Source: a virus
IMG/VR virus record: IMGVR_UViG_3300034236_000021
Reading direction: 5' to 3' (one strand)
DNA: 41,550 nt
Shown: positions 1 through 41,550 of the stretch, piece by piece
Layout: each line of letters starts with the position of its first letter
Numbering within the stretch: the first letter of the stretch is position 1
Notes under the pieces: generated by a model
The model's database searches: none
What the model saw: the letters and a program-made list of their open reading frames with translations, nothing else
What the model was told of the DNA's origin: nothing
Program-made: the position numbers and the translations under genes

Positions 1-127
1 TGATAACTGAGCTGGAGTAGATTACCCATGTCTGGCCATTACTCAGCACAATCTTAAACTTGTCACCTGTTGCACTTGAGCCTGGTGTTAGCCCATTAAT
101 AGTGACGATGCTCCCGGTGTGGGTGAT
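1..127. repeat. Terminal exact overlap, copy 1 (identical to 41424-41550); circular-assembly junction
   Basis: Read directly. tgataactgagctggag...ctcccggtgtgggtgat is present at both window ends, 127/127 identical. Confidence 0.97.
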
Positions 128-550
128 GCTTGGTGTCAGGTTGTTGTACTGCATCGTGACAAAGCCAGCACCTTGGGAGAAGCATGTCTGTAAATAGTTG
201 GCGGGGTTAGCGGTTGGCCACTTCATAGTTGCAGTTAGGTCATCCCAACCAGTAATTACCCGCTGGCTCAGTGTTTCCACGGCATTAAATGACATCTGTG
301 TCGTATTGGGGGTAGCAATATTAGTAATAGCCCCAGATACCTTGGCAGTAGTAGTTTTAATGGGGAGGCAGAAGCCGAGACCAGAAGCTGTAGGTAGTGC
401 TCCAAACGGTAGGCAGTTAATCCCAACTGAACCGACGTAAACATTTGACCACCACTGGTTAGTTGGGATAGCAGTGGTGAAGGCTGCGATTGGCGTGTGC
501 TTTGCCGTAATGTTAGCTACTGATGTGAAATGAGTTGTGTTTGTTGCCAT
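1..550 (-). CDS. GH81 endo-beta-1,3-glucanase, N-terminal part of a gene wrapping the circle junction: complement(join(39760..41550,128..550)), 737 aa
   Basis: ATG at 550-548 is preceded by AGGAAGcgcAGGAttttaat. Hand translation MATNTTHFTSVANITAKHTPIAAFTTAIPTNQWWSNVY... has no stops and runs into ...KFKIVLSNGQTWVIYSSSVI, which is the start of the 39760..41472 track ORF. The frame is continuous (550-127=423 nt). Confidence 0.9.
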   Translation of the reverse strand, partial: MATNTTHFTSVANITAKHTPIAAFTTAIPTNQWWSNVYVGSVGINCLPFGALPTASGLGFCLPIKTTTAKVSGAITNIATPNTTQMSFNAVETLSQRVITGWDDLTATMKWPTANPANYLQTCFSQGAGFVTMQYNNLTPSITHTGSIVTINGLTPGSSATGDKFKIVLSNGQTWVIYSSSVI

Positions 551-551
551 A

Positions 552-1511
552 TTAAAATCCTGCGCTTCCTATAGTAAATGTTCCGCCAAAGTCACCAGGG
601 GTAGGTTCTGCGTACGCTGGCTGGAAGTCTGATGTATCGTAGTCGGGGTCTATCGGTTCGGTATCTACAGGGATAAGGGTTGTAATCAGGTTGCCCGAAT
701 TAGATACGCTTACTTCCCATACACCACCGTCGGGGGCTGTCAGTCGGTTCAGGGGTATTGCTGCTACAGTTGTATCAACATAGTTCTTCGTGGCTGCATC
801 CTGGGCGCTTATAGGCTCGCCAACACCCGTTATGCGCTCTTGGCTCATGAAGAGCTCTTGGTACAGAGTAACTAGAGCTGCATTAAAGTCGAACAGCATC
901 AGGTGACCAGTAAATGCGCCAGTCGTATCAACTTTATCTATAGACAAATAACCTTCGCTTGCAGCTGTGTCATTTATTCCGGCATATACCATTACACCCG
1001 CTTGGTCGCCCATAGTAGAGGCAGTGTTGAGCAAGCGCATACCTGCTCCAGAATATTGGGCGGTGCTCGTGTTCTTTGCACTGTTCATGGCGTAAGCGTA
1101 TATGACGTCTATCAGACCAGTGACTTGGCCGCCGGTTAAGGATAGCTTAGCGGCTATAGCGGCGGCCTGGGCTGTGCTTACCGGCTTGTCTGCATCACTA
1201 GTATCATTCGCACTGCCTAACCCTACTTGGGCTTTAGTAACACTATGAGGGTTAGATGTATTGGCTATATGGGCAGCGGCTGTTGTTAGCGCTGTGTCTA
1301 TTTGAGCGTGAGTGTTAACGCCTATGTTGGTTAGGAGGGTGTGGTTGGTTGTGCCTGGTGGGCCTGTCTCCCCAACCCCGCCAGTAGTAATAGTGGCATC
1401 TACAGTGGAGGACTCCATAACGTTTGACTGGACAACTGAAATAACTGTAGAGCCAGAGGCATCCACGGCATTAGTTATTACGTTTACGTCCAGAGTTGAA
1501 GAGTCCGCCAT
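552..1511 (-). CDS. Tail fibre protein (319 aa)
   Basis: Fibre-type motifs NPHSVTKAQVGLGSANDTSDADKPVSTAQAAAI and ISAQDAATKNYVD. TAATG overlap with the upstream gene. Lies in the fibre cluster. Confidence 0.75.
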   Translation of the reverse strand: MADSSTLDVNVITNAVDASGSTVISVVQSNVMESSTVDATITTGGVGETGPPGTTNHTLLTNIGVNTHAQIDTALTTAAAHIANTSNPHSVTKAQVGLGSANDTSDADKPVSTAQAAAIAAKLSLTGGQVTGLIDVIYAYAMNSAKNTSTAQYSGAGMRLLNTASTMGDQAGVMVYAGINDTAASEGYLSIDKVDTTGAFTGHLMLFDFNAALVTLYQELFMSQERITGVGEPISAQDAATKNYVDTTVAAIPLNRLTAPDGGVWEVSVSNSGNLITTLIPVDTEPIDPDYDTSDFQPAYAEPTPGDFGGTFTIGSAGF

Positions 1512-1861
1512 TAAGACAACCTATTCGTTGGACTGCCATCGAGCTTAATTGTGCCTTCATCTATCTTGTACACAGTTACTCCGTCAGAGGCCACGTCTAC
1601 TTTAATGTCGTAGAAGTACTTGCCAGGAGTACGGGTCGCTGTGTCAGAAGGATTCAGTGTAATGACCGCTACGCCACCAGAGGTGCCGTTTGTAACGTTC
1701 TTTGTGACCACGGCTGTACTGTCGACTGTATCGGAGTCATACTCTGTGGTCTTCATGGTGAACCGCACAGTTGCACCTACTAAGGAAGTAGCGACACCGT
1801 TTACCTTATAGTTCACAGTACGGCTGTAGGTAGTGCCACGGTTTATATTAAGTTTTGCCAT
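1511..1861 (-). CDS. Small Ig-like/beta-sandwich virion-associated protein (116 aa)
   Basis: RBS AAGGAAAG. Pattern RGTTY..V.F.MK...D....ITL.P.DT....G.Y.YDIKV resembles small phage tail/decoration beta-sandwich proteins. The family is not certain. Confidence 0.55.
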   Translation of the reverse strand: MAKLNINRGTTYSRTVNYKVNGVATSLVGATVRFTMKTTEYDSDTVDSTAVVTKNVTNGTSGGVAVITLNPSDTATRTPGKYFYDIKVDVASDGVTVYKIDEGTIKLDGSPTNRLS

Positions 1862-2954: not shown

Positions 2955-3803
2955 CTAGGCGATCTTGTGGTAACGGAGTCTAATGCCGCTGTTCGAGGTG
3001 ATGAAGCAGTCGTAGTAGCGGCGACCGAAGCCAACCATTCCATCGATACCAAAGTAATCACCGTCCATAGTCTTAATCTTGTTGAACTTGGTAGGAGCAA
3101 TCAGAACGTCCTTAGCCATCATCAAGAAACCAAAGTTTGCAGGGAGGTAAGTGCTAGGAACGGTATATACGTCCATGCCCATAACTGTGCCAAGCTTACC
3201 GCTAGCCTTGTCGGCTGTTGAACGGTCGGTAGCTTGCTTGAAGGTAGTGTCTAGCCATAGGTAAGCCTCGACTGTCGGCGTAACGAATACGACGATGTTG
3301 CCAAGCTTAACTTTTGCTTCCTGCAAAGCTGCACGCTGGTCAAGAATCTTAGCAAACGTGTTGCTAGATGTCAGAGCGGCTGTTGCACCTTGTGAGTTAG
3401 CAACTGCGTATGCTCCGGCGATTGCTAGGCGGTATGTGTCTACTGTAGGAACAGAGACTTCACGAACCTGACGCTTAACTGCTTCGTTGATTGCTGGAAC
3501 CATCTTGGCGTCTTCTCGGTTACCTCGGTCTATAGAGATAGCGAAAGACTTGTCCTGTGACAGTACGAATGTCTGCACAGCGTTACCAAGCTCTACCAAC
3601 TGTCCGTAACGCATAGTTCCGGAGCGCTGGTAGTCATTCTCTGTTACAACTTCCATCTGGTAGATGGTTACGGCGTTGTTACCGTTGCTGAACTCTAGCT
3701 CAACACCATTGTTGATTACGTCCTTCGTAACTGAATCAAGGTAGACTCGTTCGTCAATCTTGCCCAGTACGTCAGTCGCGTAGTTTTGGCTGTAAGTAGG
3801 CAT
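2955..3803 (-). CDS. Major capsid protein (282 aa)
   Basis: Synteny portal - small protein - scaffold - this gene. RBS AAGAGGA. The size fits an HK97-fold coat protein. No diagnostic motif recognised by eye. Confidence 0.7.
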   Translation of the reverse strand: MPTYSQNYATDVLGKIDERVYLDSVTKDVINNGVELEFSNGNNAVTIYQMEVVTENDYQRSGTMRYGQLVELGNAVQTFVLSQDKSFAISIDRGNREDAKMVPAINEAVKRQVREVSVPTVDTYRLAIAGAYAVANSQGATAALTSSNTFAKILDQRAALQEAKVKLGNIVVFVTPTVEAYLWLDTTFKQATDRSTADKASGKLGTVMGMDVYTVPSTYLPANFGFLMMAKDVLIAPTKFNKIKTMDGDYFGIDGMVGFGRRYYDCFITSNSGIRLRYHKIA

Positions 3804-17411: not shown

Positions 17412-17783
17412 TTACCAGTCCTCTGGTTTGATCACGTTGCCTGGAACCTCCCCAGAAAAGTGATTAACCCTATGTACGGCTATATCTAACAGTTCTTTGA
17501 TCTCTCGCTCTTCATATCCAGCAATGCCACAGCCTATTTTGGTTAACAGGAAAGTGAGCTCTGGGTGCCTCTTGGCATAGATCAAGAAATCCTCAAGGTT
17601 ACTCGTCAGCTCAAAGATGCCGCTCATAGTGTCTATGGCATAGCATTGACCAGTCCTACCGCTGCCTACACCCCATTCAGCTCCGAATGATTCATAGGCC
17701 TGCTTAGCTGCTCCTCCCGCATGGTGGCCAGACTTATTGCTTCCAAACACAAATATTTCATTTTTCTCTAGGCTATCTATCAT
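17412..17783 (-). CDS. SLOG/A1S_2505-like phage non-structural protein (123 aa)
   Basis: Motif IFVFGSNKSGHHAGGAAKQA...FGAEWGVGSGRTGQCYAI. 1-nt overlap with the upstream pentapeptide gene. Family call is from memory. Confidence 0.55.
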   Translation of the reverse strand: MIDSLEKNEIFVFGSNKSGHHAGGAAKQAYESFGAEWGVGSGRTGQCYAIDTMSGIFELTSNLEDFLIYAKRHPELTFLLTKIGCGIAGYEEREIKELLDIAVHRVNHFSGEVPGNVIKPEDW

Positions 17784-18481
17784 CAGTATTTTTCTGCCTC
17801 AAGCCGAGTAATAAAGAAGTGAATCCCTGAGGAGCATTCATCTGTCCAATCCGGGTCAAATGGTTCTATGGGCTTAACTGTTTCTCCCTTACGGTATACA
17901 AAGTTTGAATCGTGACTACTGACCGCTTCAGTAGCACCATAGATCTGCATGACTTTTGCATATTCAGCCCGGCACTTACGACCGAAAGCATGTGACCGCT
18001 TGGCCCTTGCAGGAATTTGAAGTTTTACGATTACGCCGTTTTGGCATTTTTTCCAACCGGTGATGGTGCCCTCAGGAAGAATGCGAGTCATAGCTATGGC
18101 GTAGTCGGCGTCCTTGGCCCCGCGTAGGTCGGCCCCGCGTAGGCTGGCCTCGCGTAGGTTGGCCCCGCGTAGGTCGGCCCCGGATAGGTCGGCCCCGTAT
18201 AGGCTGGCCCCGTATAGGTCGGCCCCGGATAGGTTGGCCCCGCGTAGGTCGGCCCCGCGTAGGCTGGCCTCGCGTAGGTTGGCCCCGCGTAGGTCGGCCC
18301 CGGATAGGTCGGCCCCGTATAGGCTGGCCTCGCGTAGGTCGGCCCCGCGTAGGCTGGCCCCGGATAGGTCGGCCCCGGATAGGTCGGCCTCGTAAACCGC
18401 GTCCTTAATCGTTTCTGCTTTTTCGCTTTCAAACAGAACGGAGCCCCAGATAGACTTGATTTGTATTTTTACTTTACCCAT
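17783..18481 (-). CDS. Pentapeptide-repeat protein with a distinct C-terminal domain (232 aa)
   Basis: About 20 consecutive A(D/N)L(S/R/Y)GA units, followed by a ~100-aa non-repeat domain ending [16 protein letters not shown]. Confidence 0.85.
18114..18329. repeat. 15-nt periodic tract with a 96-nt exact tandem duplication (18114-18209 = 18234-18329)
   Basis: Rows 18121-18180 and 18241-18300 are letter-identical. This is the coding repeat of the pentapeptide gene. Confidence 0.9.
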
Positions 18482-21516: not shown

Positions 21517-22365
21517 TTATGTCAATACGCTTATGTGGTGCTGGTTAAACGCGTCCTGCAAATCTTGGTTTTCAACGTGCGTGTATATCTGGGTTGTGCT
21601 GATAAAGGCATGGCCCAGGATTAACTGGATATGTCTCATATTAGCACCATTATGCAATAAGTCAGTTGCCCCGCTATGCCGTAGCATGTGTGTGTACACT
21701 CGACGCTCTATGCCTGCTCGGCTTGCATTTCTTTTTACTACCCCATTTATTCCGCCCCTGGAGTAACGGACTTTCTTGGTGCTCAGGAATAGGGCCGGAG
21801 ATTCATCTTTCCTGCTGGCTAAGTACTCCGCTAACAAGATTCGTGTGTCTTTGTCTATAAAGACAGTCCGTGAGCGGGCATATTTGCCAAAACGTATGTA
21901 CACGAGATTATCACTTACGTCCGTTCGATTCAGGGAGGAAAGCTCCTTGGAACGTATACATGTATTAAATATGAAAGATAGCAACAATCGTTCCCGCAGA
22001 ATCGGGGCAGCTGCTATTAGGTCAACAATTTCACTATGCTTTAGATACTGAGGAAGAGCCTGGGGTAATCGAGGTAGGAATATCTCTGTCGTGTCGAATT
22101 TGGTATAGCCTTTTTTATTGGCATACTCCAGTATATTTTTGACCTTAGAAAGATAGAGTCTTACCGTTGCCGGGGCTTTATCTTTCGCCATATCGTTTCG
22201 CCATAAGGCAATATCAACCGGCGTCAGGCTTTTTATGTCGACGTTCCCGCGGCTACATACAAGTGCCTTTACGGCGTCACGGTAGCTTTGCTCAGAGCTA
22301 TCGGTTAAGCCGCGGACTTGTATGTAGTTGACTCTGAAATCTTCCAGGGCTTGTAATATTGTCAT
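21517..22365 (-). CDS. int: Tyrosine recombinase, XerC/D-like small integrase (282 aa)
   Basis: CIRSKEL (box I Arg), HMLRHSGATDLL and LGHAFISTTQIYTHV (H-R-H...Y). N-terminal SAM-like core-binding domain. No arm-binding domain is evident. Confidence 0.9.
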   Translation of the reverse strand: MTILQALEDFRVNYIQVRGLTDSSEQSYRDAVKALVCSRGNVDIKSLTPVDIALWRNDMAKDKAPATVRLYLSKVKNILEYANKKGYTKFDTTEIFLPRLPQALPQYLKHSEIVDLIAAAPILRERLLLSFIFNTCIRSKELSSLNRTDVSDNLVYIRFGKYARSRTVFIDKDTRILLAEYLASRKDESPALFLSTKKVRYSRGGINGVVKRNASRAGIERRVYTHMLRHSGATDLLHNGANMRHIQLILGHAFISTTQIYTHVENQDLQDAFNQHHISVLT

Positions 22366-26010: not shown

Positions 26011-26868
26011 TTATTTGAATATTACGTTTATCTTCTGGCGAGTAGCCGCTGTATCTGCGGCTATTTGTTTTAACAGTTCATCAGCATTGGTACTGCCGTT
26101 TGGGGGCTGTTGACTGCCCTGCTGCTGGGCTGCGGTGAGCCTGCGCTGAAGTTCTGCGTTCTGGTTCTGAAGACTGACGATCTCACTTTGCTTTTGATCT
26201 ATCACCTTCTGGAACTGTCCTAATTGTCCTTTCGCTGCAAATGCTGCTTGAATTTCAGCCTCTACTAGCCCTGCCTCATGGCTATGGAATACGTCGTTCA
26301 TGACGAACTCGGCCCCGCTATATTGGCCTGAGCCGTAATGGCGATATGCCTCTTCATCAGCGGGTCGCCGTAACCTGGACCTGAAGACCTGATCGATAAA
26401 TTGATTTGTTGCCATGTCACCTCCTTGTGTGTTGTTCGGCTGCGCCTTGGGTGATAACCAACCCAGGACGCCGTTATAATTCGGATATTGACGAATCTCT
26501 AATGAGGTAAAGACTGGGGTTCCTAATTGCTGCCAGACTCGTAACGGATTGGCGCTTACAACCATGCCTACATGACCATACCGGCCCATGTAGCCGCCCC
26601 AGACAATGAGATCGCCAGGGTTTGGGAACTGTTCCCAGTTATTCGGGTCGTTAGCTATACGGTCAAAGTGCCGGGGGATCGTGCCATCAAACTGTTCGAA
26701 GAGATCACGGGCCCCGCCAGTTTCAGAACAATACAGCGTGCCATAAGGAACGCTGTATACGTCGTGCATAGCCCGTATGACCGCCGATACACACTCGCCC
26801 TTATACCCGCCTTGGCCGTTGTCCATCTGGCCGCCTATGTTTGATTGTGCATATTGAATGGGACTCAT
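26011..26868 (-). CDS. Endolysin with N-terminal CHAP domain (285 aa)
   Basis: Catalytic-type GECVSAV (Cys) and YGHVGMVVS (His). C-terminal half is a helical/coiled coil of unknown function. Confidence 0.8.
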   Translation of the reverse strand: MSPIQYAQSNIGGQMDNGQGGYKGECVSAVIRAMHDVYSVPYGTLYCSETGGARDLFEQFDGTIPRHFDRIANDPNNWEQFPNPGDLIVWGGYMGRYGHVGMVVSANPLRVWQQLGTPVFTSLEIRQYPNYNGVLGWLSPKAQPNNTQGGDMATNQFIDQVFRSRLRRPADEEAYRHYGSGQYSGAEFVMNDVFHSHEAGLVEAEIQAAFAAKGQLGQFQKVIDQKQSEIVSLQNQNAELQRRLTAAQQQGSQQPPNGSTNADELLKQIAADTAATRQKINVIFK

Positions 26869-36299: not shown

Positions 36300-36323
36300 T
36301 AGAGAAGTTTTAGGATTTGGCTA
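36300..36323. repeat. 24-bp perfect inverted repeat, left arm (tagagaagttttaggatttggcta)
   Basis: Exact reverse complement of 37257-37280. The inner 3 nt are the TAG stop of the CAP gene. Confidence 0.95.
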
Positions 36324-36824
36324 CTTTACGAAATGCTGTACGATTAGTGTTTCACCTATTTTGTTCTTGCAGATTCCAAAACCAATATTCGTAAAACGCT
36401 TGTCTAGTATGTTGTCCTTGTGTGTCTTGCTATTCATCCACCCGCTAATCGCCTCATCAACACTATCATTGCCTTTGTAGAGGTTCTCGGCCGCAACATC
36501 ATACTCGGAAACGGTTTTCTTTATAAATACCCAAGGCTCGGTACCCTCTGGCGAGTTATGGCTCCAGTAGTCTTTTGTTGCCATATCCTGGCATTTGGCC
36601 AAAGCCGAGGCATTAAGGCGTTCGTCTAACGCCGTCCTACTCACCCCCACCTCAGCCCTTTCTGAGTTAGTTCGCCTCCATAGGTCATATACTACAAGGC
36701 TGTTCGCACTTGAATTGCCCGGTTTACTCATTGTAGGTTTTATCGTCGAATCACGGATTGACGCGCCAATCCAGGTAAAAACTATAGCGACGAGCGCTAG
36801 CAAAGCAATGTGCTTGCGGTTCAT
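36321..36824 (-). CDS. CAP/SCP (YkwD-like, PR-1 superfamily) domain protein with N-terminal signal anchor (167 aa)
   Basis: LWRRTNSERAEVGVSRTALDERLNASALAKCQDMATKDYWSH...AENL...AISGWMNSKTHKDNIL...FTNIGFG matches the CAP/SCP pattern. N-terminal IALLALVAIVFTWIG. Confidence 0.8.
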   Translation of the reverse strand: MNRKHIALLALVAIVFTWIGASIRDSTIKPTMSKPGNSSANSLVVYDLWRRTNSERAEVGVSRTALDERLNASALAKCQDMATKDYWSHNSPEGTEPWVFIKKTVSEYDVAAENLYKGNDSVDEAISGWMNSKTHKDNILDKRFTNIGFGICKNKIGETLIVQHFVK

Positions 36825-36899: not shown

Positions 36900-37259
36900 A
36901 TGAGCGTACTTGGAAAAATAGTGGGAGGCCTCTTCCTCCTATTCGTGGCATTTTGCATCGGCGCTACTGTCGGTGATACGACAGCCAGGAACGAGCTAAC
37001 GCAAAAGAATACCGAGGCAAGCGCTCAGCTCAACCAGGCTATTGCCGAACGTGACAAGTCGTTAGCGGAGCTACGAGGAGTTCACGAAGACCTTATTGCG
37101 AAATGGAACCAGCAACAGAATGACATTGGCGCGGGAAAGTATACCCGTACACAGTATGTGCAATCGCCTAATTACTCGAGCATATTCCCTAAAACTACTA
37201 GATGCGAAACGCGAGACTCTTACTACACGAACGGTGGCTTTACTACCACATGCCAATAG
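36900..37259 (+). CDS. Membrane-anchored coiled-coil protein (119 aa)
   Basis: N-terminal TM IVGGLFLLFVAFCIGATV, coiled-coil middle, C-terminus with 2 Cys. Plus strand with its own promoter. Confidence 0.7.
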   Translation: MSVLGKIVGGLFLLFVAFCIGATVGDTTARNELTQKNTEASAQLNQAIAERDKSLAELRGVHEDLIAKWNQQQNDIGAGKYTRTQYVQSPNYSSIFPKTTRCETRDSYYTNGGFTTTCQ

Positions 37260-37656: not shown

Positions 37657-37750
37657 GCAAGCACGCGCTTGTTAGCACCCCCACCAAGTGTGCTTGCACA
37701 TTATCCTTCGTAGCGAGAAAGATTTAACCGGCTGATATGGCCGGTTTTTT
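37657..37750 (+). ncRNA. Candidate sRNA (~94 nt): 5' hairpin with C-rich loop, single-stranded ACAUUAUCCUUCGUAGCGA, intrinsic terminator
   Basis: Stem gcaagcac (37657-64) / gtgcttgc (37690-97) with loop uuagcacccccac. Terminator AACCGGC-tgatatg-GCCGGTT-TTTT (37726-50). Contains no ATG. Confidence 0.6.
37698..37716. repeat. 19-nt perfect direct repeat, copy 1 (acattatccttcgtagcga)
   Basis: Identical to 37847-37865. The flanking bases differ on both sides. Confidence 0.95.
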
Positions 37751-37779
37751 CGTGGCCCGTGAAGGTATGAAATCGTAAG

Positions 37780-37921
37780 CATAAGAAAAGACCGGCAAGA
37801 TGCCGGTCTACTTCGTGACTTCGAGCTACCCCAATGTAGATCAATAACATTATCCTTCGTAGCGATACGTCGGTAGGGCGGTATACTCTCAAAACCCTCT
37901 TGGCAAGGCCTTGCCGCGATT
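37780..37921 (-). ncRNA. Candidate sRNA (~140 nt) convergent with the plus-strand sRNA; carries UCGCUACGAAGGAUAAUGU
   Basis: Predicted +1 ~37921. 5' palindromic hairpin GGCAAGGCCTTGCC. Terminator GACCGGCA-tct-TGCCGGTC-TTTTCTT (37808-37780). The terminator lies inside the 74-aa track ORF, which argues against that ORF. Confidence 0.55.
37847..37865. repeat. 19-nt perfect direct repeat, copy 2
   Basis: Identical to 37698-37716. Confidence 0.95.
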
Positions 37922-37927
37922 GCATTT

Positions 37928-37969: not shown

Positions 37970-39760
37970 TTATCTAGTCAAAGCCCGTCCATTACCAAAC
38001 GCTACACACTGGTAGTCTAGGTGTATTAGGTCAGTAGCCACAACACCTGAGTTAGTAGTATTGATAGCAGCTCCAGTTTCCCTACCGGTAGCGGTTGGGA
38101 TATTAGTCGTAAGAGTGTCTGTCCACAGTAAGGTGCCACTATCGTTAAATATTTCAAAAGTAATGCTGGTAGCTCCAGCGTTTACTGTTACTCGTGATCG
38201 ATACCACGTAGCTACCGTCAGCGTATAAGTTGTGCCAGTACTGCTACGGGTATTAGCAGTCGCAGTTTTGCCGGTAGCCACACCAGCCGAGTCTATTTCA
38301 ATATAGGCACCATCGGCCGCGTCAGCGCTACTTGAAGTATCGAGAAAGCCCATACGAGTAGTAGTGGCAGTAAAAACTTCTGGCATCCAGATACATTCAA
38401 AGACTTCACCGCCTCCTAATAGTATTTGGGCGGTGTTAAGAGCTACAGTATAGCCGGAATTGGTTGTTGTTGAGCTACGGAGCCTCACTTGTCCCGGATG
38501 AGAGGCAGTTACACGGCCAGCATTGGGTGCATTTATCGTACCTGATGCTATGGCGATACCCGAGAATGGGTCAATCATGTTTGAAGAGCTAAGCCCTGCA
38601 AAGTCTGAGTAGTAAATAGGCTTTTTACGTATAGCATCCATCATCGCGTAGCCGTAATCTATATAGGCCGAGACATTATTAGGAGTAGACGAATCTTTTT
38701 GCCACTTTACGTTTTGCCCGCCAGCAGGAGCAGCAACTACGGAATCACTTAGATTGGCGTCAGTCGCGGCAACACCGTTGACGCTGACACTGTCTCCAGA
38801 GCCGCCTGAAGGCGTAGACCAAGTACCGTCACCGCGTAGGTAGGTACTAGAACTTGGTGTACCAGTCGCACTTATTCCAGTACTAACTGGCAGGCCTGTA
38901 GCGTTGGTTAAGACTGCTGCACTAGGCGTTCCAAGTGCAGGAGTAACTAATGTTGGCGATGTTCCGCGTACTATGGAACCGGTGCCAGTTGTCGTATTTC
39001 CTAGTAGGGTTACATTTGGATCATAAGCCTGTACGTCAGTCCCGATTACAAGCCCCAAGTTCGTACGAGCGCCCGCCGCGGTACTAGCCCCAGTGCCACC
39101 ATCAGCCACTGCCACGTCAGTACCACCCGGAGCATATTTTCCATCCAGGGTTGCCTGCAAGCCAGTAACTGTACTGATTGCCTGAGCGCCCGTGTGGTTA
39201 GTCCGATTCTTTAGGTTCGCGTCAGTGTCGTTAGCCGTTGCACCAGTAGCAATGCCCGCAACTTTAGTTTTCTCCGTAGCTGTATAGGCTTTGTTAGTCG
39301 TTCCGTCTGGCACTGCATCTTGGTTAAGCGCCTGCATTGTCTTATCGCCCCGGTAATATTGAGATGACGTTCCTGCGGCAATGGTAGTCTCTTTTGTGTC
39401 CAACTGGCTCTTATTCACAGCGTCAGCGGCGTTCGTACCATTGGCTAGACTAGTGACCTTATTCCCATTAACGTCTACTCCGGCTGCTTCAGTAATGGTA
39501 GCCACAGTTGTGCCAGCGCTATTCTTCAACCGTATACCAGCTCCTGCGCTCCGAAGGTCCGTATGGTCTGATGTGGATACATTCAGTATATCTGGGTTGT
39601 TACCAATGCTATCCGTTCCCTTTATGGGTATGTTATGCGGCATGTAGAACGATGTATAGCCTTGGACGCTACCCCCAGCGATGCTATCAAGAAATGCACT
39701 TTGGTTTTGTTTGCCGACCAATTCAGCAGCTAGGTCGGATTCTTGTATATGTGTTCCCAT
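37970..39760 (-). CDS. Tail fibre / receptor-binding protein (596 aa) with lectin-like C-terminal domain
   Basis: NKVTSLANGTNAADAVNKSQLD and TNHTGAQAISTVTGLQATLDGK fibre motifs. C-terminal ~200 aa is beta-rich and jelly-roll/LamG-like by composition. TAATG overlap with the GH81 stop. Confidence 0.75.
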   Translation of the reverse strand: MGTHIQESDLAAELVGKQNQSAFLDSIAGGSVQGYTSFYMPHNIPIKGTDSIGNNPDILNVSTSDHTDLRSAGAGIRLKNSAGTTVATITEAAGVDVNGNKVTSLANGTNAADAVNKSQLDTKETTIAAGTSSQYYRGDKTMQALNQDAVPDGTTNKAYTATEKTKVAGIATGATANDTDANLKNRTNHTGAQAISTVTGLQATLDGKYAPGGTDVAVADGGTGASTAAGARTNLGLVIGTDVQAYDPNVTLLGNTTTGTGSIVRGTSPTLVTPALGTPSAAVLTNATGLPVSTGISATGTPSSSTYLRGDGTWSTPSGGSGDSVSVNGVAATDANLSDSVVAAPAGGQNVKWQKDSSTPNNVSAYIDYGYAMMDAIRKKPIYYSDFAGLSSSNMIDPFSGIAIASGTINAPNAGRVTASHPGQVRLRSSTTTNSGYTVALNTAQILLGGGEVFECIWMPEVFTATTTRMGFLDTSSSADAADGAYIEIDSAGVATGKTATANTRSSTGTTYTLTVATWYRSRVTVNAGATSITFEIFNDSGTLLWTDTLTTNIPTATGRETGAAINTTNSGVVATDLIHLDYQCVAFGNGRALTR

Positions 39761-41550
39761 TATCTTGTAGCTATCCAGTGAAGCAAGTTAGTTAATGTTG
39801 CACCATTATCAAAGGTGGTGAGCGCATTCGCCTCAGTCCATGCAGCTGCTGGGTCGAGTACCGCCTTAGCGGAGTTCATAACCCCTTGCCAGGCATCAGT
39901 CATTTCTATATGGAGAGTGCCTGTTGCACCCGTACCTCCTCCACCGACGACAGTGATGGTATCGCCGTCAACATAACCACTCCCCGTCCACTCATACGCT
40001 GAGCCTATCTTTGGAGTTATAGAAGTGACAGCACCTCCCGATACAGCAATAGTGACGAGAAGGCCTGTACCGCTACCCCCAGTTGTTGCTAGGCTGCTTC
40101 CTGCGGTATAGCCTGAGCCACCCGTGAGCTTGGTTATCCGGTAAGGCGTACTACGGCTATCGATACGTGACATAACGGCCGGGTACTCATCCGCAACCCA
40201 GTCAGCCTCCAAGAAAAGTTCTGATATCGGTACGCAAGGGAGCATCTGGATTCCATGTATATACTCTTCCTGGGTTCCGAAGAAGGTGTTGTAGTCCATC
40301 TTAAAGTCGAACAAGATACCCACTGAGCCTTGCTGTTTGAAGTTCTCGGGCCAGATCGGTGAGTCAAGCTTAACGTGGTAGTAGCGCCGGACCGAGTGCA
40401 GTTCGGTGGCAGTCAGTAGTTGTCCGGTTGCAGCCATGTAGTCGCTGCCGCTCGCCAGTCCCCATAGTGTCAGTGCATAGTAGGCATTGATTGATTCACT
40501 GGAAGATTCTTGGTTCTTTGAGCTACTAGCTGCGCTTAAGCCATGGGCCCACGAATGGCCGTGGTACCAGTCTTTGTGACGGAATAGTGGGAAGCTGGTT
40601 TCACTTGGGTATGGGTTAGCTATATCTTTAGCTAGAACATTTACTTTTGTTTGGTAGCTAGCTAGGAACGCTGCGTCAGTCTTAGCAAGTATGGCGGCTG
40701 CGTAGAGCATGTATCCGTAGTGGAAGTGATGATCATTGTATATGCCATTGCCGAAGTCACCACCCGTAGATGTTGAGCCGTTTGTGGAGATGATGCCCCC
40801 GAAAGTCGTGTCATACAGTAGCTTATTTGTGTTAGTAGCGTCTAGCCAGGCTACAAGGCTTGGCTTGAACTTTGTACGAGCACTGGCCGCTAGAGTAGTC
40901 TCACCAAGTTCATCAGCTATTTGGGCTAGGCGGGCCCACTTCGCTAAGTACTTCCCACCGTAGTAGGGGTCAGCCTGCGCGGTAGTGGTACTGAATGTTG
41001 CACCAATGTCAGCGGTTAGCGCTGTCGTAATGGCTGCTATGCGGGTAGGGTCAATAGCATTCGGCGGCTTAAACCCAAATGTTGGGAGCACTTCACGCAT
41101 CGTCCATGAGGTGCCGCTTATCCCAGTCGTATCACCTTTAAGCACGTTATAGGTAATACCGGCTAGTGTTGGGTCCTGTATACCATCCATGTGATGGGGC
41201 AGTACGTGTGTCAGAAGCGTACCGCTTCCACTTGTCGTGTAAGTGAATACGATTGTACCCACGTTGTTATTTACGGTAAGAGTGAGATCAGCCCCAGTAA
41301 CGTATATGCCATGGGCAGCATCAAGTACGGCCTCATCTTCAGGCACGGATATAATGGCAGCCTGCAAAATTCCGGTGAAGGTGCTAGTAGCCACCAGCGC
41401 AGCAGTTGCGTGAGTGGATATGGTGATAACTGAGCTGGAGTAGATTACCCATGTCTGGCCATTACTCAGCACAATCTTAAACTTGTCACCTGTTGCACTT
41501 GAGCCTGGTGTTAGCCCATTAATAGTGACGATGCTCCCGGTGTGGGTGAT
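39760..41550 (-). CDS. GH81 endo-beta-1,3-glucanase, C-terminal 596 codons of the junction-spanning gene
   Basis: GH81 signature blocks YNDHHFHYGYMLYAAAILAK, FRHKDWYHGHSWAHGL, NQESSSESINAYYALTLWG and YIHGIQMLP. The frame stays open upstream of the track start at 41472, through 41550 and into 128-550. Confidence 0.88.
   Translation of the reverse strand: MTHTGSIVTINGLTPGSSATGDKFKIVLSNGQTWVIYSSSVITISTHATAALVATSTFTGILQAAIISVPEDEAVLDAAHGIYVTGADLTLTVNNNVGTIVFTYTTSGSGTLLTHVLPHHMDGIQDPTLAGITYNVLKGDTTGISGTSWTMREVLPTFGFKPPNAIDPTRIAAITTALTADIGATFSTTTAQADPYYGGKYLAKWARLAQIADELGETTLAASARTKFKPSLVAWLDATNTNKLLYDTTFGGIISTNGSTSTGGDFGNGIYNDHHFHYGYMLYAAAILAKTDAAFLASYQTKVNVLAKDIANPYPSETSFPLFRHKDWYHGHSWAHGLSAASSSKNQESSSESINAYYALTLWGLASGSDYMAATGQLLTATELHSVRRYYHVKLDSPIWPENFKQQGSVGILFDFKMDYNTFFGTQEEYIHGIQMLPCVPISELFLEADWVADEYPAVMSRIDSRSTPYRITKLTGGSGYTAGSSLATTGGSGTGLLVTIAVSGGAVTSITPKIGSAYEWTGSGYVDGDTITVVGGGGTGATGTLHIEMTDAWQGVMNSAKAVLDPAAAWTEANALTTFDNGATLTNLLHWIATR
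41424..41550. repeat. Terminal exact overlap, copy 2 (identical to 1-127)
   Basis: Same 127-nt string as 1-127. An ORF reads through it in frame, so it is the same locus written twice. Confidence 0.97.

Follow-up and report, generated by a model that had tools for sequence, protein, structure and literature searches.

The viral sequence record IMGVR_UViG_3300034236_000021 of IMG/VR, a stretch of 41,550 nucleotides that we refer to as the window, encodes a 737-residue protein of glycoside hydrolase family 81 (GH81), a family whose only reported activity is that of an endo-beta-1,3-glucanase (PMC9609564). The record represents the genome of a temperate tailed phage from an uncultured group. A previous sequence-only reading of the window had described the GH81 gene as split by the linearisation point, and this description holds. 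The minus-strand frame at 39760-41550 is free of stops up to the window end and closes with a TAA at 39762-39760, and the frame that opens at the ATG at position 550 continues in frame down to 128, into a segment of 127 nucleotides in which bases 1-127 are identical to bases 41424-41550. As this segment is a duplicate, the true circle measures 41,423 bp, and joining 550→128 to 41550→39760 on the minus strand yields a single open reading frame (ORF) of 737 codons followed by a TAA stop. The junction is crossed uninterrupted, at 100% nucleotide identity, by Logan contig SRR10953936 (41,267 nt) and by the ENA MEGAHIT contig ERZ27253098, in both of which the identical 737-residue gene is called, indicating that the join is not an artefact of assembly; both assemblies may draw in part on reads from the sample of the window itself. 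The ribosome-binding site that had been placed before ATG 550 is present as an AGGA (Table 1), and the motifs quoted in the earlier reading were all found, with IPTNQWW at residue 28, NDHHFHYGY at 413, HGHSWAHGL at 471, NQESSSE at 487, and GIQMLP at 574.

Table 1. Features of the window that bear on the GH81 gene; positions are those of the whole stretch.
Feature	Position	Strand	Description
Assembly overlap	1..127	.	Exact copy of 41424-41550; circular or circularly permuted contig, no extra sequence
GH81 gene, 5' part	128..550	-	Residues 1-141; ATG at 550-548; N-terminal beta-sandwich from about residue 22 (487)
GH81 gene, 3' part	39760..41550	-	Residues 142-737 and TAA at 39762-39760
Domains of the GH81 3' part		-	Rest of the N-terminal domain to ~41065; C-terminal (alpha/alpha)6 catalytic domain at ~41046-40162 and, after the insertion, 39903-39763
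Asp414 codon (NDHHFHYGY)	40732..40734	-	Equivalent to RmLam81A Asp475; invariant in 61 sequences
Glu489-Glu493 codons (ESSSE)	40495..40509	-	Equivalent to RmLam81A Glu553 and Glu557, the catalytic glutamates; invariant in 61 sequences
Insertion domain	39904..40158	-	Residues 606-690; all-beta, Gly-rich (GGSGY...GGSGTG...GSGY...GGGGTG), inside the C-terminal domain
Shine-Dalgarno-like AGGA	558..561	-	7 nt upstream of the GH81 ATG, within the end of the 319-aa upstream gene
319-aa fibre-like protein	552..1511	-	Upstream of GH81; motifs NPHSVTKAQVGLG and ISAQDAATKNYVD; C-terminus conserved upstream of the L003 GH81
116-aa protein	1511..1861	-	phrog_1084, no assigned function; first gene of the variable cassette after the conserved major capsid protein, 185-aa and 141-aa genes
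596-aa fibre-like protein	37970..39760	-	Downstream of GH81; YadA-stalk-like motif near the N-terminus, SO2946-like (ConA/LamG-type) C-terminal domain
Terminator-like hairpin	37789..37809	-	9 bp, 6 GC, T-rich tail; just 3' of the 596-aa gene

Family, fold and catalytic residues

Pfam domains, sequence matches in the PDB, the predicted fold and the catalytic residues all place the protein in GH81. The C-terminal domain Glyco_hydro81C (PF17652) was matched over residues 310-604 (E 1.2e-95, 321 bits) and the N-terminal domain Glyco_hydro_81 (PF03639) over residues 22-303 (E 2.7e-40, 139 bits), both far above the curated Pfam cut-off of 25.6 bits for these domains. Sequence matches in the PDB were to RmLam81A (E 1.2e-77) and to BhGH81 and CtLam81A (about 1e-33), with fungal and myxobacterial GH81s scoring 265 bits compared with about 118 bits for those of Bacillus and Clostridium. 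An AlphaFold2 model of the 737-residue protein, built on 61 homologues, has a mean predicted local distance difference test (pLDDT) score of 94.7 and a predicted template modelling (pTM) score of 0.92, and displays the three-domain GH81 fold of a beta-sandwich, a small linker domain and an (alpha/alpha)6 barrel. Foldseek superposed the model on RmLam81A (4k35/5xc2) with template modelling (TM) scores of 0.82-0.85 and an E-value of 5e-50, and on BhGH81 with a TM score of 0.77. Residues D414, E489, and E493, to which we presumptively assign catalytic roles after published GH81 structures, align in HMMER with D475, E553, and E557 of RmLam81A and are invariant in the 61-homologue alignment, as are the DHHFH, HSWA, and QESxSE blocks, in phage and cellular sequences alike. 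The sequence-only reading had named a GH81 profile search, superposition on RmLam81A or BhGH81, and substitution of the catalytic Asp or Glu residues as the points on which its family call would turn; both domains are placed in GH81, the superposition is close, and the Asp and both Glu are unsubstituted. On sequence and modelled structure, the assignment to GH81 is thus unambiguous and secure, and the phage protein appears to be an intact and apparently active enzyme, predicted from its sequence to cut beta-1,3-glucan.

No signal peptide or other secretion signal was found in the phage GH81, nor any N-terminal particle-binding domain, adaptor domain or docking peptide. The model is ordered from about residue 10 and the Pfam domain begins at residue 22, and the N-terminal strand at residues 10-27 is itself part of the GH81 fold and common to cellular enzymes, in line with the earlier remark that a separate virion-anchoring domain appears to be lacking. 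Compared with RmLam81A of Rhizomucor miehei (PDB 4k35, 5xc2), with which it has in common the beta-sandwich, linker domain and (alpha/alpha)6 barrel at about 25% identity by structure alignment, the phage enzyme lacks a signal peptide, has almost no N-terminal extension, is encoded in a tail-fibre cassette, and contains an 85-residue all-beta insertion between helices of the C-terminal domain that RmLam81A does not have. Family, fold and catalytic motif are likewise common to BhGH81/BH0236, CtLam81A, PsLam81A, and the myxobacterial homologues, among which CtLam81A also carries a dockerin. Characterised bacterial GH81s are secreted and bear appended modules such as the carbohydrate-binding modules (CBMs) CBM6 and CBM56 (PMC7915573, PMC9609564). 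In contrast, the phage GH81 has neither CBM nor dockerin and carries an internal phage-type repeat instead. The only full-length GH81 matches in a library of predicted viral structures were two giant-virus proteins, the glucan endo-1,3-beta-D-glucosidase of Pithovirus LCPAC101 and A0A1X7QGG0, whose similarity to the phage enzyme is much lower (TM 0.76 and 0.40, respectively) and neither of which is among the ~85-residue matches listed for the insertion domain in that library; Pithovirus, unlike the window phage, is a virus of eukaryotes.

An inserted domain related to virion proteins

The insertion is the only phage-specific element of the window GH81, and both it and the wider group of phage GH81s had been overlooked in the sequence-only reading. 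In the alignment it spans 81-104 residues and lies between the last helices of the catalytic domain, and it is present in most of the phage GH81s. It is carried by the window protein and by homologues P0001, P0003, P0004, P0006, P0007, P0012, P0014, P0016, P0017, P0019, and P0023; it is absent from the GH81s of Chondromyces, Sorangium, and Conidiobolus, from cellular P0045 and cellular locus L024, from P0013, and from phage P0002. All seven of the insertion-bearing genes for which the context is visible lie in phage-like contigs, and in a crude neighbour-joining (NJ) tree without support values the insertion-bearing sequences form a cluster of their own, next to bacterial GH81s.

In the full model the insertion forms a compact all-beta domain with pLDDT values of 91-96. 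A separate model of the insertion (pLDDT 84) gave no significant neighbour in the PDB, the best E-value being 0.13. Among predicted viral structures, it matches domains of about 85 residues in phage fibre and structural proteins with a probability of 1.0, a root-mean-square deviation of 1.7-3.4 A and 27-42% identity, including proteins of Synechococcus phages ACG-2014d, metaG-MbCM1, and S-PM2, an Alteromonas ZP6 beta-helix protein, an Achromobacter fibre, and a P22 gp10-like protein. A profile of the insertion searched against 1.84 billion representatives retrieved 3,700 proteins at E ≤ 1e-3, many of them 1,000-6,000 residues long and with up to 34 tandem copies. Nine of nine examples taken from outside GH81 matched PHROGs annotated as virion structural protein, baseplate wedge, tail fibre, baseplate hub or internal virion protein (E 1e-40 to 1e-67), and none of the nine had a Pfam match. 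A tblastn search of GenBank phages with the insertion domain gave no match, for which the shortness and low complexity of the query are the probable reason. From the homology to this virion-protein repeat, we conclude that the phage GH81 lineage took up one unit of a repeat from which phage virion proteins are built.

The family of the inserted domain (P0370-P0515) is itself very large and has no Pfam model, and looks like a widespread, structurally uncharacterised repeat of phage virions.

Gene neighbourhood, relatives and host

Along the minus strand, the genes run in the order TerS, TerL, a 639-aa protein that is a portal by position only, a 269-aa protein, the major head protein, 185-, 141-, and 116-aa proteins, the 319-aa fibre-like protein, GH81, and the 596-aa fibre-like protein. 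Next come a CAP-domain protein, a 387-aa protein, a 1345-aa homologue of internal virion proteins, 230-, 663-, and 283-aa proteins, and a CHAP-domain candidate endolysin at 26011-26868, about 13 kb from GH81. The GH81 gene thus sits in the tail/receptor-binding cluster with structural genes, between two fibre-like genes of the late operon. Adjacency to a lysis cassette (holin, endolysin or spanin) is not seen for the window GH81 and occurs only in its distant relative L007. The 319-aa protein contains the fibre-typical motifs NPHSVTKAQVGLG and DAATKNYVD and has many short matches to PHROG tail fibres; such matches of the fibre-like neighbours have E-values of 1e-7 to 1e-5. The SO2946-like domain of the 596-aa protein, which is a probable receptor-binding protein (RBP), was matched at E 3.9e-33, and its YadA-stalk match (E 4e-4) falls below the Pfam cut-off.

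The TAA of the 319-aa gene at 554-552 is separated from the GH81 ATG by a 1-nt gap, and the start of the 596-aa gene at 39760 overlaps the end of GH81 by 1 nt, reading TAATG. As read from these two junctions, GH81 is translationally coupled to both fibre-like genes. The coupling to fibre neighbours proposed in the sequence-only reading is therefore borne out, the fibre nature of these neighbours being a matter of motif-level matches only. We also considered whether a programmed +1 frameshift might fuse the 319-aa protein to GH81, since the junction GGA TTT TAA T ATG would permit a UUU-to-UUU slip, and rejected this on comparison with locus L003, where a GH81 of 70% identity is preceded by GGA TTA TAA T ATG, without a slippery run. 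The AGGA and the 1-nt gap are conserved at L003, with one base of the spacer differing, and an ordinary ribosome-binding site with coupling thus fits the junction in place of a frameshift. The strong hairpin at 37809-37789, after the 596-aa gene, probably marks the end of the late head/fibre transcript, which places GH81 within that transcript and far from the candidate endolysin.

Several other features of the window were noted. A 74-aa 'ORF' at 37701-37925, after the 596-aa gene, holds two strong hairpins, of which that at 37809-37789 is on the minus strand and that at 37726-37746 is bidirectional, and a sigma-70-like promoter match of 11/12 lies at 37957-37928; this region is probably a terminator/promoter boundary and not a gene. 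Between the fibre cassette and the CAP-domain gene, a 119-aa ORF at 36900-37259 (+) runs opposite to all surrounding late genes; its sole match is a weak one to Phage_scaffold (E 0.003), and it may be a moron or spurious. The early region contains an integrase (21517-22365), Rad52, and a pentapeptide-repeat protein with a C-terminal DUF5758 domain (17783-18481, -; E 2e-54 and 1e-25), which may be a DNA mimic or an anti-defence protein.

A search of about 5.8 billion proteins returned GH81 homologues at 70%, 54%, and 48% identity, one each, then a mostly metagenomic series at 36-41%, and then myxobacterial and fungal GH81s; the nearest cellular GH81s come from predatory or saprophytic myxobacteria. 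Contigs were looked up for nine of the homologues. Seven different contexts are phage-like. Apart from GH81 they have nothing in common with the window, except that L003 also shares the C-terminus of the upstream protein and has the same fibre/GH81 pair. In at least six other phage contigs the gene lies in or beside a structural module: it is two genes downstream of a capsid gene in L004, between a LamG protein and an SU10-type tail adaptor in L005/L006, three genes after the adaptor in L002, which has an SU10-type major capsid protein (MCP) and adaptor, and downstream of a P22-type portal in L001. At the distal end of a siphovirus-like tail module in L023, tape measure, Sipho_Gp37, and PKD proteins precede GH81, which is followed by an M15 peptidase. 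In L014, GH81 is about 4 kb from a tailspike. L007/L008, a 107-kb phage of 62% GC, has the gene order r1t-type holin, Gp80, GH81. The cellular locus L024 has tandem secreted-type GH81s among housekeeping genes. Overall, the phage contigs with GH81 range from podovirus-like to siphovirus-like and about 100 kb in size, with GC contents of 41% to 62%.

GH81 was found in only six of 2.9 million IMG/VR contigs, one of these being a giant-virus metagenome-assembled genome (MAG), and in none of 50,697 GenBank phage records searched by tblastn; no PHROG family matched it, and of the 14 papers that a full-text literature search for GH81 and phage returned, none seemed relevant by title or abstract. These results agree with the earlier statement that GH81 is not among the described families of phage depolymerases. 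The phage GH81s are a small, previously undescribed group and not a single oddity. We also regard it as possible, though somewhat less likely than not, that they form a phage-specific lineage marked by the inserted virion repeat domain, which exchange of cassettes has carried between podovirus-like, siphovirus-like, and ~100-kb phages of 41-62% GC.

The contigs of the relatives offered further observations. The two tandem GH81 genes of L024 (5139-10634) each have a Big_3_5 domain and no insertion, lie near the phage GH81s in the NJ tree, and are a candidate cellular source lineage. A CAP/SCP-domain protein paired with a protein of about 385 aa occurs both in the window (36321-36824, -) and in the otherwise unrelated L005 (15057-15554), there just after the SU10-type adaptor and a 636-aa gene, and may be a conserved ejection or tail-associated pair. 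The SU10-like contigs L002 (3689-7474) and L005 (262-5546) contain sugar-gene clusters with glycosyltransferases in both, joined by an epimerase, an RGP-family protein, and UDP-glucose dehydrogenase in L005 and by a methyltransferase in L002, and have genes for Cpn60 (L002) and Cpn10 (L005); such phages may modify a glycan on the surface of the host in addition to cutting one. In L007/L008 (9131-12685, 22305-22685), GH81 has a C-terminal extension of about 150 aa with Ser/Thr-rich repeats and a weak GH16 match lies about 10 kb downstream, and the role of GH81 may differ there.

The MCP of the window (2955-3803) is 85-93% identical to that of many metagenomic contigs of 41-46 kb (L016, L017, L009). 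The contigs with the closest MCPs have only the MCP and the next two genes in common with the window, and TerL, portal, and tail genes differ. There is strong mosaicism around this conserved three-gene head block. In contigs with an MCP of 85-89% identity, the stretch from the MCP/185/141 genes to the tail adaptor includes genes for a 444-aa beta-helix protein, or for a 477-aa SGNH esterase and an SO2946-like protein. Beta-helix and SGNH proteins are classic tailspike or depolymerase types.

Searches for prophage relatives by MCP, and then by a 25-sequence MCP profile, found none in 185,579 GTDB species genomes, and the MCP relatives, of which there are at least 965, are all environmental and metagenomic. 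Cultured-phage relatives are at most 38% identical, and the nearest GenBank relative is an uncultured Manatee Spring phage without GH81. TerL relatives (66-69% identity) occur in an Acidobacteria MAG and in an actinobacterial prophage of Naasia lichenicola, and as they fall in both groups TerL does not identify the host; together with the Manatee Spring phage, these are the only named relatives by MCP or TerL. No tRNA or Rfam family was found in the window. Shine-Dalgarno (SD)-like motifs precede 30 of the 52 ORFs, a frequency that argues weakly against an SD-poor host such as Bacteroidota. The sequence-only reading had offered a lactic acid bacterium as a possible host, which is not favoured by the genome GC content of 48.6% or by the environmental origin of all MCP and TerL relatives. 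Given the GC range of the phages with GH81, several host groups are probably involved.

Possible roles of the phage GH81 and their implications

We consider it fairly likely that the window GH81 is a virion-associated beta-1,3-glucan depolymerase, a role suggested by its position in the operon, its coupling to fibre genes, the conserved fibre/GH81 pair, its recurrence in tail modules, the virion-type insertion, and the lack of a signal peptide. From gene context we infer that it would be part of the particle. The enzyme would be made late, on one transcript with capsid and fibre genes, and coupled to the 319-aa fibre-like protein upstream and the lectin-tipped 596-aa fibre protein downstream. 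Without a signal peptide it would stay in the cytoplasm, and it may then ride on the tail by way of the flanking fibre proteins, the ~85-residue insertion (606-690), or both. Once the particle touches a cell, the enzyme would cleave a layer of beta-1,3-glucan, such as a curdlan-like capsule, extracellular polysaccharide (EPS) or sheath, allowing the virion to reach a secondary receptor. The same logic of stripping a surface polysaccharide to reach the cell applies to tailspike and tail-fibre depolymerases (beta-helix spikes of the P22 and K1F type, SGNH esterases and lyases, with two-RBP systems such as those of KP32 or G7C among the comparisons), whose genes likewise lie in the receptor-binding cassette of the tail module. 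In contrast to tailspikes, the phage GH81 is an (alpha/alpha)6 barrel and not a trimeric beta-helix, and has no anchor domain. The beta-helix and SGNH proteins encoded by the contigs with the closest MCPs give suggestive added support to a depolymerase role.

Several observations weigh against this role. The enzyme has no N-terminal anchor or adaptor, residues 10-27 already belonging to the GH81 fold, and the GH81 enzymes characterised to date are, as far as is known, monomeric, in contrast to the trimeric beta-helices that make up most tailspikes. A phage GH81 can do without the insertion, as phage P0002/L001 lacks it. In L007/L008 the gene follows an r1t-type holin, which suggests a lysis or release role there. 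As the prophage scans gave no host, there is no beta-1,3-glucan surface layer to point to, and as the contigs with the closest MCPs share just three genes with the window, the comparison of their variable regions is suggestive only and not one of strict synteny.

Part of this evidence also fits a soluble, non-virion enzyme, made late and freed at lysis, that would digest the surrounding beta-1,3-glucan so that progeny escape and spread; the matrix could be EPS or biofilm made by the host, or glucan from fungi, algae or lichen nearby. Lacking both an anchor and a signal peptide, the enzyme would need lysis for its release, its characterised relatives are, as far as is known, monomeric, the TerL relatives come from soil- and lichen-type organisms in whose surroundings fungal glucan is plentiful, and the L007 homologue adjoins a holin. 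We nevertheless regard such a role as rather unlikely for the window GH81, which is tightly coupled between two fibre-like genes in a fibre/GH81 pair conserved at L003, belongs to a set of genes that recur in the tail modules of podovirus-like and siphovirus-like contigs, and has gained a repeat module otherwise found in virion structural proteins. The holin in L007/L008, with its order of r1t holin, Gp80, and GH81, bears also on the proposal of a lysis accessory or 'exolysin', which would degrade a beta-1,3-glucan layer of the envelope from within, late and together with holin and endolysin, as does the siphovirus-like L023, where GH81 lies three small genes upstream of the M15 peptidase. A position just before the lysis cassette is, however, also normal for siphovirus RBPs, and in the window the neighbours of GH81 are fibre-like, with the CHAP candidate endolysin and its neighbouring small ORFs about 13 kb away, beyond the terminator-like hairpin, making a lysis accessory improbable here.

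Two further roles appear very improbable. Given the integrase and the predatory or saprophytic myxobacteria in which the nearest cellular GH81s reside, the gene could be lysogenic-conversion or metabolic cargo, supplying a beta-1,3-glucanase to a host that feeds on laminarin or fungal wall glucan; such an enzyme would be expected neither to lack every secretion signal nor to contain a virion-type repeat, and its gene is embedded and coupled in the late structural operon and is not a separately transcribed moron near an attachment site (att). Some phage RBPs derive from inactivated enzymes, and the protein could by analogy be a catalytically dead GH81 serving solely as a beta-glucan-binding module for receptor recognition, an equally remote proposition in view of the predicted intact fold and the strict conservation of D414, E489, E493, and the DHHFH, HSWA, and QESxSE blocks in phage and cellular sequences.

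The novelty is real but moderate: the enzyme family and the type of phage function that it would serve are both known, and it is their combination and the arrangement of domains that have no earlier description. Most phage depolymerases known to date belong to the beta-helix lyases and hydrolases, the sialidases, or the esterases. If the window GH81 is a depolymerase, it extends this list by a CAZy family and, with beta-1,3-glucan, by a class of substrate that are both new to it, and would point to hosts in whose surface or habitat beta-1,3-glucan predominates and whose phages have to cut through it. In a new manner, the insertion links a widespread, structurally unsolved virion repeat with an enzyme, and it suggests a route for attaching cargo enzymes to tails; if the proposal of a phage-specific lineage is true, the inserted domain would be a new means of mounting on a phage tail a monomeric glycosidase that has no N-terminal anchor. 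Being compact and without signal peptide or CBM, the phage GH81s may also serve against curdlan or fungal-glucan biofilms. Taken together, our analysis suggests that some phages may have to cut a beta-1,3-glucan layer to reach their bacteria, and should the lineage proposal hold, such layers would recur as a barrier or receptor for the phages of several uncultured groups of bacteria, perhaps in the form of curdlan-like capsules or sheaths, or of glucan matrices of fungal, algal or lichen origin that house the hosts.

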